DNA of 57,609 bases from Prorocentrum cordatum (taxonomy: Eukaryota): contig CAUYUJ010000011.1 in assembly GCA_963575745.1 (NCBI GenBank), positions 62,001 to 119,609 on the forward strand, given 5' to 3'. Positions 11,411-18,870 of this stretch are shown here, piece after piece; position 1 is the first letter of the stretch, and every line of letters starts with the position of its first letter. Both the position numbers and the translations under genes were made by a program. The notes beneath the pieces are model-generated. The model ran no database searches. It had not been told where the DNA came from and saw nothing but the letters and a program-made list of their open reading frames with translations.

Positions 11411-12300
11411 TTTCCTCCTCCTTGTCCTCCTCCTTTTCCTCTTCCTTCTCCTCCCCCTTTTCCTCCTCCTTCTCCTCCTCCTCCTTTTCCTCCTCTTGCT
11501 CCTCCTCCTTTTCCTCCTCCTTTTCCTCCTCCTTTTCATCATCCTCGTCCTCGTCGTCCTCGTCGTCCTCGTCATCCTTGTCGTCCTCGTCGTCCTCGTC
11601 GTGCTCGTCCTCGTCGTCGTGGACCTCCTCCTCCTCCTCCTCCTCTTCCTCCTCCCCTGTTCCTCCTTTTGCTCCTCCTCCTGCTCCTGCTGCTCCTCCT
11701 CCTCCTCCTCCGACGCCTCCTCCTCGTCCTTCTCCTCCTCGTCCTCCCCCCCCGGGGAGGCACCGTGATGCCGGTGCCGTGCATCAAGACCTCCACGCGC
11801 GCGACCACCGATGCCCGGCCGGGAGCCCCCCGGGAAGGCCGATGACGGCCACCAACACGAGAACGAGCACGAGCACGATGACGAAGACGAGGACGACAAC
11901 GGCGAGGGCGGCGGAGAACGACGACAAAATTGGGAACGACAACGACGAGGACGAGGACGCCGGCAGAGGACGAGGATTGCGAGGACGAAGACGGATGACG
12001 AGGACGACAAAAAAGAGAGGGACAACGACGACGACGACGGCGACGAGGACGACAGCGGAGGAGGAGGAGGATGAGGAGGAGGAGGAGGAGGACGACGACG
12101 ACGACGGGGAGGAAAGCGATGACGACGAGGATGAGGGCAAATGGCTGGGGAAGGGGGGGTCTGAGAAAAAGAAGGGGAGGAGGAGGGAGCGACGAGGAGG
12201 AAGAGACGAGCGGAAGAGGAGGACGGAGGATGGAGGATGGGGCGGAGAGCTGTGGCGGGGAAGGAGGAAGTGGCGGAGGAAGAGGCGGGAAAGGAGGGAG
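11259..12300. repeat. (CCT)n, (CGT)n, (GAC)n and (GGA)n microsatellite mosaic
   Basis: Direct reading. A short unique island lies at ~11760-11850. Confidence 0.9.
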
Positions 12301-15300
12301 TGGGACGATTTCTTCCTCCGCGAGCCATCAGGCAGGACCGAGGGGGCAGCAGTTCTGCCCGCGATGGAGGGCACGCGCTGTGACTGCCCTCCCTGGAACC
12401 AAAAGGGCGCCCGACGCTCTTGATCGGACGTGGCAGCCGACCGACGCTGCAAACGTAGCCCGACGGGGCGCGAAGGGCGCGCGAGGGCCACCCTCCCTGA
12501 AAACCAACGCGACAATTCGGGTCCAACGCTGAGCCTCGGACCCGGCAGCGCGCAGAGGCGGCTGCCCGCGACGCCCGCGGGGCGGGGAGCACGAAGGCCA
12601 CTGGGCATCCCGCCCAGGGCCCCAGGGGGGCAGAGGCGCAGCCTGCGTCGCGCTGGTCTCGCCGCAACCTTAGCCCCGAGGTCAGCGCGGCCAGGCCGCG
12701 CAGCCAGCAGCCCGGGCAATGCCGCCCAGAGCGAAAGGAGGTGACATACCCGCGCGCACACGCTGAGCGATAATGAACAAAAGGCGAAGCCCTGCCTGGC
12801 GCCACCGGGGGAGGAAGGGGGGCCGCCCCAGACTAAAACGACCCCGTTCTATATTAGAACGGCCCCGTTCTAGCCAAGAGCGGGACCGTTCTAGGCTAGA
12901 ACGGGCGGGCGCTGTTCCGGGGCAGCCGTGGAACAGGACCCGACCCACGACCCCAAGATGCAGCCAGACATGGGGCAGCCCTTTAATGTCCGAGCAGCGC
13001 CGCTGCCACCGCGGCGAGGGAAGCAGCGCGCTGGCACGAGCCAGCAAACGCACGGCAGAAACAAGGGGCGAAGACCAGCCAGACATGACCAGACAAATAC
13101 GGAGCAGGCCCCTAAATGCCTGATCCGTCCGCCGGGACAGGGCTGCCCCTCAGGAGCGACTGCTGCTGCTGACGGCAGCCTGTCTGGCCGCTGGCTCTCC
13201 CGCCTGCGCCCGCGCCGACAGAGCTGCCATTCCCGCCGTCTGCGGGCGGGCGCCCAGGCCGCTCGGTGGCGGGCGAAGCTCGGGGGGGCGGCGGAGGCGC
13301 AGCTGCATGCTGCGCGCGCGTGCCGCGCCCCTGCTCCTGGGCGCGCCAAGTCGACCACCCCCCTCGCGATAATGTGGGCGCAGGCCCTCAGAGATTCTCC
13401 CATGCGCGGTCGGGCCCCCCGAAATCTCGCGCAACGGGCAGTCTCGTCCGAGGACAAGACAGCGGCGCTCAGCGCAAGCCCCGCGCGTGGCACAAAAATA
13501 CATGGTAGACTCCTAGCCACTTCCCTGGGTGACTCGAGTGTGGGCCAGAGCATGGCCCTAGGAGAGATCTGGAACACCTTGCCAGGTCTTGCCGAAACCA
13601 GGGCAGTCTATCATGGGCCTAGATGGGGCCTCGCTACTGGACAAGAGGCACTGCACACATCTAGCGCGGCCTCCCTCCAGAACGCGCGCCATCCCCCAGG
13701 CGCGAGGAAATGACCTTTGGGCCCAAGGAAGGCGCCACAAAAATCTGCAGCATCAAAACCGCACCACACCTCGGCCACGACGCGGGCCGCGAATTTGAGA
13801 CGAGTAAGATCGGACGTCCATCAGCTCGTTCTCGGCGGGGGGGGGGTGTAGGGCGGACTGGGCAAGGGCGTCCGCAAGGCGGTTACCATCGGCAACCTCT
13901 TCTCCGCGGGCGACAGAGCACGAGATACTTTCTCGGATCGGCGGGCAAGGGCGCGGGCGACGCGAGGGGCATTGCCGTGTTTTTCGTGAAGTAGCGTCGA
14001 CCCCGGGATCTTTTGGAGCGAGTCCAGGGTCACGCGGCGCCCAGTAAAACCAATGGACTCTCCAGCCATTCGTCGTTCGAGTTGTCGCCGGTTACCAAGG
14101 GGCAACACATGGCCAACCATGCCGGGAGAGACGTGGGCGAGGTCGGCCTCGCGCCCGCGATCGCCCTCCTACGTTAAAGCCGACGTAGCGCCCCAGCCTC
14201 AGCGGCCCAGACGAAGATGCATTCTCTGGATTGGTCGTCGAGGGAGTTATTCCACGCCACCCCTTCATTGAAAGGACGCGACCCCGCGTCTAATATCAGC
14301 CAGCGTTGGCCCCAGGTAGAATTGACGATTCAAATCAAGGAATCGAGCATGCTTGGACTCCGCAACTCGGCAAACAAGCGTGCAAGCAAGCGCGCAAGCA
14401 GGCAAGCAAGCATAGACACAGGAGCGCCCAGAGGTGGTGCATAAGCATAAGCATATGCACAGGCCTCGGCGTAGTCATAGGAGTGAGGGGAGGGGCATAG
14501 GCATGGGACCAATTAGCAGAGAATGAATGAGAACCCCATGTTGGGCAAGCCTATTTGGAGAACAAGCCTCTTTAACATTGCAATGGGACACGGGGGGGGG
14601 GGGGGGGGGCAGACAACGTTGGCCAACTGAAGGGCGGGAGCGAGACTGGCCCTGTCCACAAGGTCTCCATGAAATGCCAATTTGGCCGCGATGGGGGCAG
14701 CCCCTTGTGTCGGGGGGGGCTTGCGTGAAAAACAGAGTGCGCCTAGCCCGTCGTAACTCGCTGTCGCCCATGCCGACCACGCTGGAATCAGCGGCGGCCG
14801 CAGGGGCCGCTCCCGCGACGTTGATCTTTCCGAAGCGACCCTTTTGCCCGGGCAAGCGGCGTCCATTTTCGCAACATACGGCGGCGCTCGAACGCGCACT
14901 CCTCGCATTCCTGGCATGCCGCGCCTGCCCGCGCGCTGAGCCCGCCATCCTGCCGCGCAGGTTGCCGAGCTCGCGGGCGGCGCGCAGAAGGCTGCCGAAG
15001 GTGGCGAGCCTGTCGGCCTGCAGACCAACCTTCAGACCGCCGCGACAAACGCAGAACATGCTGGCACGCGCCTGCACCGCGCGAGAGAGGGTCTGTTGCT
15101 CCGTCTCCGTCTCCGTCGCCAACGCATCGCCATCAACGTAGGAGGGAATGGGGGCGGAGGGATGGGCAGTGGAGAAACGATCGAGGGCCGCCACACTAGG
15201 CCTTCACAAAAAAATAGATGTCTCCCGCATGGGGACCAGAGCCTTCAAGGCACGAGGCCGTGCCGCACGTGCAGCCCGACCTGACAGCGCGAGGTCCTCG

Positions 15301-18300: not shown

Positions 18301-18870
18301 CAGCAGGCACATCATTAGAAGAGGAGGTGACGACAAGCTTCTCGTACCGCTTCCGCAACTCATCAAGCTGTCGTTGTAACTTACCCTCACGAGAACGGCC
18401 GCCACCATGAGGACGACGTCCAGCAAGAGGAGACCAGGCGCCGTTGCCATTCGTGTTCGTCGAACTTTTTTTGGCATGCTGGCGGGCTGCACGGATGACT
18501 CGGGCAGGTGCTGAACGACCGCACCTGCGCCGGATCCTCGACGCCCAGTTCGCGTTGAGCCCGCATTCTCCACATGTCCAGAAAAAGGCTGCCGTGGGCC
18601 AGGCAGCACAGGCCCACCATCAACCACGGAGCCCCGTTTGTGAAAAGGGGGAGCAAGACACCCTGGAGTCTCCTTTGCATATCCAGAAAAGGCTGCCGTG
18701 GGCCGGGTAGCACAGGTCCATCATCAACCGTGGAGTCCCCATTTGTGAAAGGGGGGAGAAAGACACGCTGGGGTCTCCGACCCCGCCGAAAAACTGGCCC
18801 CGCAGCAGCTCCTGGCCGCTCTGAAGCTGCTACAAGCTCAGGTCACTGCGTGAGCCAGAACGGCTAAGGA
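12300..18870 (-). mobile_element. Decayed full-length non-LTR retrotransposon (ORF1 + APE-RT-RNase H), homologous to the element at 34151-40271
   Basis: Colinear minus-strand peptides: Zn finger WTCGECGLNANWASRIRRRCGRSAPAR (~18500-18582); ORF1 coiled coil (18017-18358); APE remnants SGQEVGL, MLATPSVHGSGGGLSG and LFVAGGGWD (~16850-17250); WDEWQGRALKGGLGPMRRLAK; RT LPEKPKGAPRPIPFCAGFVRVWERLRR and PSYVDGDAL (15129-15140); GKINVAGAAPAA..GMGDSE; ADLAHVSPGMV..VTLDSLQK. There are many frameshifts and stops and an insertion at ~14340-14610. The 3' limit is approximate. Confidence 0.85.
18849..18870 (-). other. Relict DinoSL at the 5' end of the decayed LINE
   Basis: Minus strand TCCTTAGCCGTTCTGGCTCACG versus DinoSL TCCGTAGCCATTTTGGCTCAAG: 18/22 identical, ungapped. 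Confidence 0.8.

Follow-up and report, generated by a model that had tools for sequence, protein, structure and literature searches.

The stretch of DNA analysed here, referred to throughout as the window, comprises 57,609 nucleotides (nt) of Prorocentrum cordatum (assembly GCA_963575745.1, contig CAUYUJ010000011.1, forward-strand positions 62,001 to 119,609). It is GC-rich overall, with long polypurine/polypyrimidine simple repeats, and it contains two long interspersed nuclear elements (LINEs): a younger one on the plus strand at 34151-40271, which we name element 1, and an old one on the minus strand at 12299-18870, element 2. Both begin with the 22-nt dinoflagellate spliced leader (DinoSL), perfect in element 1 and decayed in element 2. 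Analysis of the minus-strand locus confirmed a decayed, dead, full-length L1-like retrotransposon of ~6.6 kb, from the class without long terminal repeats (non-LTR). Its features are listed here from 5′ to 3′, together with open reading frames (ORFs), the reverse transcriptase (RT), the apurinic/apyrimidinic (AP) endonuclease and positions in a family profile of 1,577 positions built from 21 full-length database proteins:

18849-18870, minus strand: decayed DinoSL TCCTTAGCCGTTCTGGCTCACG, 18/22, at the exact 5′ terminus of element 2, with low complexity from 18871
18573-18778, minus strand: tandem duplication of ~102 nt in the 5′ untranslated region (UTR), two units, 86% identical (self-comparison of 18573-18673 with 18678-18778, E 1e-26)
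18017-18619, minus strand: ORF1 remnant, with a RanBP2-like zinc finger FWTCGECGLNANWASRI from ~18583 and then a coiled-coil-like stretch (translation; E 1e-9 to element 1 ORF1)
16779-17093, minus strand: AP-endonuclease remnant with two in-frame stops (profile positions 90-195, 2e-16)
14700-15979, minus strand: remnant of the RT region in three frames (profile positions 466-936)
13992-14234, minus strand: post-RT conserved domain (profile positions 1003-1086, 7e-12; i-E 5e-13)
13222-13686, minus strand: remnant of the C-terminal Cys-rich domain (profile positions 1425-1553, 9e-9; i-E 5e-10)
12299-12307, minus strand: 3′ terminal motif CGTCCCAC(T), at which both local alignments begin
12285-12298, unstranded: candidate decayed target-site duplication, partner 18871-18886, not above chance

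The corresponding features of element 1 are:

34151-34172, plus strand: exact 22-nt DinoSL TCCGTAGCCATTTTGGCTCAAG, 22/22, at the 5′ terminus of element 1
34319-35389, plus strand: ORF1, with zinc finger WACGRCGASSNWACRI and a coiled coil (translation, translated search and ORF1 alignment)
35463-40143, plus strand: ORF2, with endonuclease, RT, post-RT, RNase H-like and C-terminal Cys domains (Pfam and family profile)
40253-40271, plus strand: 3′ tail CGTCCCATTCCATTCCATT, with no poly(A)
40272-40283, plus strand: target-site duplication CCTCCTCCGCCT, whose partner at 34140-34151 stands directly before the leader

The first-pass annotation had placed the end of the complex sequence exactly at an 18/22 match to DinoSL (18849-18870), and this was borne out by a scan of the window, by shuffled sequence and by the purine content at the boundary. 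The reverse complement of 18849-18870, TCCTTAGCCGTTCTGGCTCACG, is identical at 18/22 positions to DinoSL, the consensus of which is printed as DCCGTAGCCATTTTGGCTCAAG (PMC7245778). When both strands were scanned, only two sites in the window came within five mismatches of the 21-nt leader core: 34152-34172, which is exact, and the head of element 2, with four mismatches. Block shuffles (n = 60) yielded matches with ≤5 mismatches in 8/60 cases and with ≤4 mismatches in 0/60. Low complexity starts at 18871, right outside the leader (90% purine in 18871-18930), and resumes just beyond the 3′ end (87% purine in 12239-12298); between the two boundaries lies complex, skew-neutral sequence, with strong purine/pyrimidine tracts making up 0.9% of 12299-18870. 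Because no shuffle reached four mismatches or fewer, and because the match is positioned at a composition boundary, a chance origin of this leader is contradicted. These data support the identification of the first bases of element 2 as a decayed DinoSL, which has accumulated four changes in 22 nt (18%) beside the perfect leader of element 1.

Leader and zinc finger are similarly spaced in the two elements (~200 nt in element 1; ~266 nt in element 2, or 161 nt without the duplication) and in a further leader-headed locus described below, L133 (~274 nt). Beyond the leader, the likeness of the 5′ UTRs of elements 1 and 2 was borderline (score 29, reached by 1/200 shuffles). Another leader-like string, CGGGCGCCCTTTTGGTTCCAG, occurs on the minus strand at 12393-12413, ~100 nt ahead of element 2's 3′ end; at 15/21 it is at chance level, estimated at ~1 per window.

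Element 2 had also been described as a colinear minus-strand homologue of element 1, with zinc finger, AP endonuclease and RT in order, a description that held in translated searches, in the family profile and in the zinc-finger columns. A blastn comparison of element 1 with element 2 gave no match. The check proposed for this claim was a tBLASTn-type alignment of the proteins encoded at 34-40 kb to 12300-18870; when run, it returned significant, colinear matches, with ORF1 at 18583-18041 (E 1e-9, 25% over 197 amino acids (aa)) and the RT piece at 15642-15274 (E 1e-4). Along element 2 the order is ORF1 zinc finger, AP endonuclease, RT, post-RT domain and C-terminal Cys domain, colinear with both element 1 and the profile. 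In an ORF1 alignment of element 1, element 2, L133 and P0154 (a 104-aa fragment from the ORF1 search, ending 12 aa short of the conserved part), the W-x-C-x2-C-x4-N-x-A-x-R columns are invariant. Taken together, these comparisons support element 2 as an old, colinear member of the LINE family of element 1.

The post-RT ORF of element 1 has 1,218 representatives at E ≤0.001 in a library of 1.84 billion proteins. Because the family profile matches the solved structures of LINE-1 ORF2p (2e-15 over 360 positions; PDB 8sxt/8uw3), exonuclease III (2e-10) and RNase H (7e-7), the family is assigned, from predicted domains, to the L1-like AP-endonuclease LINEs, with an added RNase H; the L1 endonuclease is also among the PDB structures matched. 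On element 1 the profile gives five colinear matches (4e-57 to 2e-160) in four changing frames. Pfam placed Exo_endo_phos above the cut-off (2e-7) and RVT_1 below it (18.6 versus 29.6 bits), the identity of element 1 to solved L1 proteins being too low for the RVT_1 cut-off, and found no zinc-finger family in the element 1 proteins at E 0.01.

The decay of element 2 accounts for the earlier remark that the ORF track holds only fragments of it: the matched segments require at least four frame changes and contain six in-frame stops, and the zinc knuckle and RNase H, which occupy positions 1087-1424 of the profile, are gone, with 306 nt in their place and ~0.7 kb missing. The strongest RT match is at 15699-15268 (profile positions 585-730, 1e-15), flanked by matches at 15979-15701 (positions 466-584) and 15194-14700 (positions 757-936); the closest database protein to this region is P0086 (38% over 191 aa). 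A Pfam search of 19 minus-strand ORF fragments of element 2 gave no match, and self-comparison revealed no terminal direct repeats of the LTR kind.

The claim that the two elements are very divergent at the protein level was upheld by the RT alignment (142 columns, 63 sequences, restricted to stored proteins of at least 900 aa and rows covering at least 70% of columns). Elements 1 and 2 are identical at 32/127 columns (25%), whereas element 1 shares 70/131 with P0001 and element 2 shares 59/138 with P0086; in the FastTree topology, read for branching order alone, each groups with that relative and not with the other. The RT of L133 shares 36/130 columns with element 1 and 30/137 with element 2, and lies far from both in the tree. 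Given that four changes in 22 leader bases cannot explain 75% protein divergence, elements 1 and 2 are, on these alignments, products of lineages that split long before either insertion.

We then compared the ends of the two insertions. The proposed 3′ end of element 2 near 12300 is backed by a terminal motif common to both elements: its end reads CGTCCCACT (12307-12299), containing the same 7-nt motif as element 1, and the two can be summarized as CGTCCCAYT. Element 1 is bracketed by the 12-mer CCTCCTCCGCCT. On the plus strand the window contains eight exact copies of it, of which two coincide exactly with the ends of element 1, an arrangement unlikely by chance (~0.02, a rough estimate), making a 12-13-nt target-site duplication credible. 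For element 2, a possible decayed duplication had been suggested. The repeat does exist, matching at 14/16 positions with a 2-nt gap and two edits, but it does not rise above chance (~0.1): the 16-mer has 16 other matches in the window with ≤2 edits (12 on the plus strand, 4 on the minus strand), and two of these fall in the 500-nt tract adjoining the 3′ end of element 2.

Both elements sit in polypurine/polypyrimidine tracts, and in each case the sense strand is the pyrimidine one. Such tracts constitute 18.9% of the window outside the elements, so that the location of both copies in them is no more than suggestive. On both sides of both copies the flanks are GGA/CCT simple repeats; of the leader there is only the 22-nt exon, on the 5′ side alone, and no spliced-leader (SL) gene promoter, SL intron or leader fragment 3′ of either element was found in these flanks.

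The first-pass annotation had further suggested that the leader head is a conserved property of the lineage and not a one-off accident. To explore leader heads outside the window, we scanned public contigs for exact leaders, which yielded 119 viral-collection stretches and 20 rows from prokaryote metagenome-assembled genomes (MAGs); with L001 the set comprises 139 loci (1.38 Mb). Two of them match the family profile: L001, which had been fetched as a relative, and L133. On L133, an unrelated contig of 70% GC binned in a bacterial MAG, an (AGAGAC/AG)n repeat runs to base 116 and an exact leader follows directly at 117-137. Its ORF1 carries Pfam Zn_ribbon_RanBP above the cut-off (1.6e-7), and its ORF2 the family endonuclease (2e-22) and RT (9e-50). 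A second locus, L136 (1-2464, minus strand), has an exact leader, an 85-nt UTR, a 286-aa ORF1 that lacks the zinc finger, and an ORF2 in which Pfam recognizes Exo_endo_phos (7e-8). Even without filters, L136 gives no match to the family profile; by its predicted proteins, L136 is a LINE of a different clade with the same leader head. The suggestion thus stands in one part, because L133 and L136 show that the head is not a one-off, and looks doubtful in the other, because L136 lies outside the family.

Searches that started from the family and not from the leader were less informative about 5′ ends. A metagenome search for family DNA returned a single locus of 1.8 kb, L001, which lacks a 5′ end; a search of viral contigs gave none that was confirmed, and a longer zinc-knuckle pattern gave 0 matches there. 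Among five MAGs holding leader-bearing contigs, three have family matches (L146, L147 and L144), none of which reaches the 5′ end, and they are hence uninformative. L146 has no leader-like string with ≤5 mismatches in its 7,111 nt, and its frame stays open as far as the contig edge. The leader translated in three reading frames had 0 matches in 154 stored proteins. With respect to the proteins of these loci, an open frame of ~3.5 kb lies between ORF1 and the endonuclease of L133 (1358-4890), encoding tandem protein repeats internally and matching nothing in Pfam, and in L146, too, the frame of ORF2 stays open over the 1.5 kb that precede the endonuclease; some family members may have a long N-terminal extension.

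These observations are consistent with a model, which we regard as very probably correct, in which LINE mRNAs, like those of the host, would be trans-spliced and their leader copied into DNA by full-length target-primed reverse transcription. First, the element mRNA would gain the 22-nt leader by trans-splicing, as other dinoflagellate mRNAs do. Element proteins would then nick a polypurine/polypyrimidine repeat and reverse-transcribe the processed mRNA from its specific 3′ tail to the capped leader; we infer target-primed reverse transcription from the domain content, the target-site duplication of element 1 and the exact ends. The new DNA copy would start with the leader, the head that both window copies carry, and after insertion it would decay as element 2 visibly has, by leader changes, frameshifts, stops, the 102-nt duplication and the ~0.7-kb deletion. 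Because perfect leaders occur on elements with 22-28% RT identity, the leader is most likely re-acquired from host SL RNA in each replication cycle and not inherited with the element. Given that L136, outside the family, carries the same head, the head is probably a consequence of host RNA processing of any LINE mRNA and not a trait of one lineage. The pattern indicates that such LINEs copy themselves from fully processed messages.

Several points weigh against this model. Element 1 ORF2 is broken by at least four frame changes, and hence no intact source copy was seen; the target-site duplication of element 2 is at chance level; and ~920 nt without any match separate the last protein match of element 2 (13222) from its 3′ end (12299), the counterpart in element 1 being ~330 nt. 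Neither copy has a poly(A) tail: CGTCCCAYT is followed by flanking repeat, unlike a plain processed mRNA retrocopy. Because the leader itself was the search query that led to L133 and L136, they speak to recurrence and not to frequency, and the only unbiased 5′-complete copies, both leader-headed, are the two in the window. Finally, a scan of both elements detected no tandem relict leader behind either head, whereas the published recycling model, as set out in parts of PMC7245778 and PMC12014239, expects truncated relict leaders after repeated cycles.

The lack of tandem relicts would also fit an alternative that we consider unlikely, in which the leader is a hard-wired, selected, DNA-transcribed part of the element (for example, a basal promoter or a mimic of a processed 5′ end) inherited in every cycle. 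A DNA-encoded DinoSL has been proposed as a core promoter by Song et al. 2017 (in a passage of PMC5585692), and hard-wired leaders appear to exist in nature. In the IMG/VR collection, AT-rich contigs of giant-virus MAGs carry exact DinoSL at 133 distinct sites (L002-L120; for example, L012:10484, L016:2536, L019:7001, L052 and L107), where the 25 nt upstream are ≥80% A+T at 113/133 sites, the variable first position is A at 127/133, AAATATA lies within 30 nt upstream at 28, and long ORFs directly follow many. This looks like leaders hard-wired behind a conserved promoter-like box at putative viral gene starts. Two features of the LINEs argue against a hard-wired leader. The host-consensus leader is found on elements sharing 22-28% of RT columns and on one from a different clade, which re-addition can explain without all 22 nt being under selection. 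The insertion also opens with the very first base of the leader, which fits an mRNA 5′ end, whereas a promoter would need transcription to begin at its first base or further upstream.

LINE enzymes are capable of template switching. An 18/22 match arising by chance, or an RT switch onto free SL RNA (as in U6-L1 chimeras) by a LINE whose mRNA was never trans-spliced, would create a leader head without processing, and weak leader-like strings do occur, the same strand having one at 12413-12393 (15/21). Both versions are highly improbable: 0/60 shuffles had ≤4 mismatches, and the match falls exactly at a composition boundary; the same type of junction recurs in element 1, L133 and L136; and a switch onto unspliced SL RNA would bring SL-intron sequence between leader and element, whereas the junctions are exon-only, on which ground template switching onto SL RNA was rejected. 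Least probable of all is a site-specific retrotransposon of the SLACS, CRE or NeSL type whose leader is a piece of an interrupted SL RNA gene, because, even though non-LTR lineages specific for spliced-leader exons exist (described in part of PMC4640811), all flanks here are GGA/CCT repeats without SL-gene promoter or intron, element 1 is bracketed by the CCTCCTCCGCCT duplication and not by leader halves, with the whole exon on one side, and the endonuclease is AP-type and N-terminal; SL-gene insertion was rejected on the simple-repeat flanks and the endonuclease type.

Trans-splicing of LINE mRNAs followed by full-length reverse transcription can be taken a step further, to a reading that we put forward only tentatively and that is more doubtful than not. 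Leader-headed LINEs might be the engine of dinoflagellate retrogenes, having given up an internal promoter, with the terminal AG of the DNA-encoded leader reused as a trans-splice acceptor. A polypyrimidine target tract would then precede the AG, as it does in both window copies, and a read-through transcript would be re-capped with a fresh leader at the same base, so that every cycle would restore a perfect 5′ end to the mRNA; this would explain the absence of tandem relict leaders. Under this reading, a preference for simple repeats would also mark the sites of ordinary leader-tagged retrogenes (L121, L124 and L135).

Leader-headed retrocopies that abut microsatellites occur on GC-rich contigs in bacterial MAGs, at L121:39 (GT)n, L124:32 (CAT)n, L133:117 (AG)n and L135:35 (ACAG)n, that is, at 4/18 genome-contig leader sites with ≥25 nt upstream, which hints at simple-repeat targeting by the retroposition machinery. 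Other leader sites on these contigs are of different kinds. At L131:42-62 (minus strand) a tandem pair of truncated relict leaders stands behind the leader. In L126, L127, L132 and L138, GTAC.. and a T run come after the leader, the arrangement that a true SL RNA gene should have; leader then GT is seen at 8/18 genome-contig sites.

Within the window, one further piece of a LINE of this family was found close to element 2:

11034-11282, minus strand: third LINE-family fragment, 5′-truncated, zinc-knuckle region (profile positions 1108-1193, 6e-9)

The fragment begins right after a (GGA)n run, with weak colinear traces at 10622-10503 and 10392-10261. It covers part of what is absent from element 2 but is out of order, and a separate insertion is therefore probable. 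Among named proteins, the one closest to any part of the window is a Prorocentrum cordatum gene model, the 672-aa P0153, in which residues 304-344 (41 aa) match the C-terminal end of the LINE ORF1 at 93% identity; this stretch is either a retrotransposon-derived exon or the result of a gene model running through a LINE fragment.

DinoSL-relict retrogenes of dinoflagellates were reportedly described by Slamovits and Keeling in 2008. Like these, the window copies would be DNA copies of processed trans-spliced mRNA, and their 5′ end carries the 22-nt leader, by which retroposition can be recognized. Unlike these, they would derive from a retrotransposon's own mRNA, and be autonomous in origin; they end in an element-specific tail instead of poly(A), with no truncated relict behind the leader. 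With human LINE-1 the family shares two ORFs, an N-terminal AP endonuclease, an RT whose thumb/tower region is L1-like, a C-terminus rich in Cys, a credible target-site duplication (in element 1) and 5′-truncated copies. It differs from human LINE-1 in the RanBP2-type zinc finger of ORF1, in the RNase H-like domain and zf-RVT-like knuckle after the RT, in a (CATTC)-like 3′ tail instead of poly(A), and in a 5′ end that is the host spliced leader and not an internal-promoter 5′ UTR.

In the SLACS, CRE and NeSL clades a restriction-like endonuclease lies C-terminal to the RT, whereas the window elements have an N-terminal AP-type endonuclease. Those clades resemble the window elements in being non-LTR elements physically joined to spliced-leader sequence; by contrast, they are inserted in SL RNA genes and flanked by target halves (as described in part of PMC4640811), and the elements here lie in simple repeats with a whole exon on the 5′ side only. 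L1Tc and ingi of trypanosomes are likewise LINEs in hosts that trans-splice mRNAs; L1Tc has an internal promoter, Pr77, and, going by the title of PMC1874656, unspliced transcripts, unlike the dinoflagellate copies, whose leader implies spliced templates. Leader-tagged retrogenes are well known and abundant in dinoflagellate genomes (from parts of PMC6050394, PMC5585692, PMC12014239 and PMC7245778). On the enzyme behind them, a passage of Song et al. 2017 gives the source as unknown and reports enrichment of the Gene Ontology term 'RNA-dependent DNA replication' among leader-tagged genes (PMC5585692), and the relevant part of a 2018 review favours Ty1/copia as the RT source (PMC6050394). A literature search confined to the main text of papers found no statement that dinoflagellate LINEs begin with DinoSL; RT genes may appear among the leader-tagged genes in the supplements to Song et al. 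2017.

A leader-headed LINE is largely expected from universal trans-splicing. Its significance is that an AP-endonuclease LINE family would have copied complete leader-bearing mRNAs into these genomes, and would have done so over a long time span, as judged from one perfect leader and one that is 18% decayed, and in several lineages. Such LINEs offer concrete candidate machinery for dinoflagellate retroposition. The leader may serve as a tag that separates full-length from truncated LINE copies, and its decay as a way to date insertions. If the terminal AG is indeed reused as a splice acceptor, a LINE could live without a promoter in a trans-splicing host.

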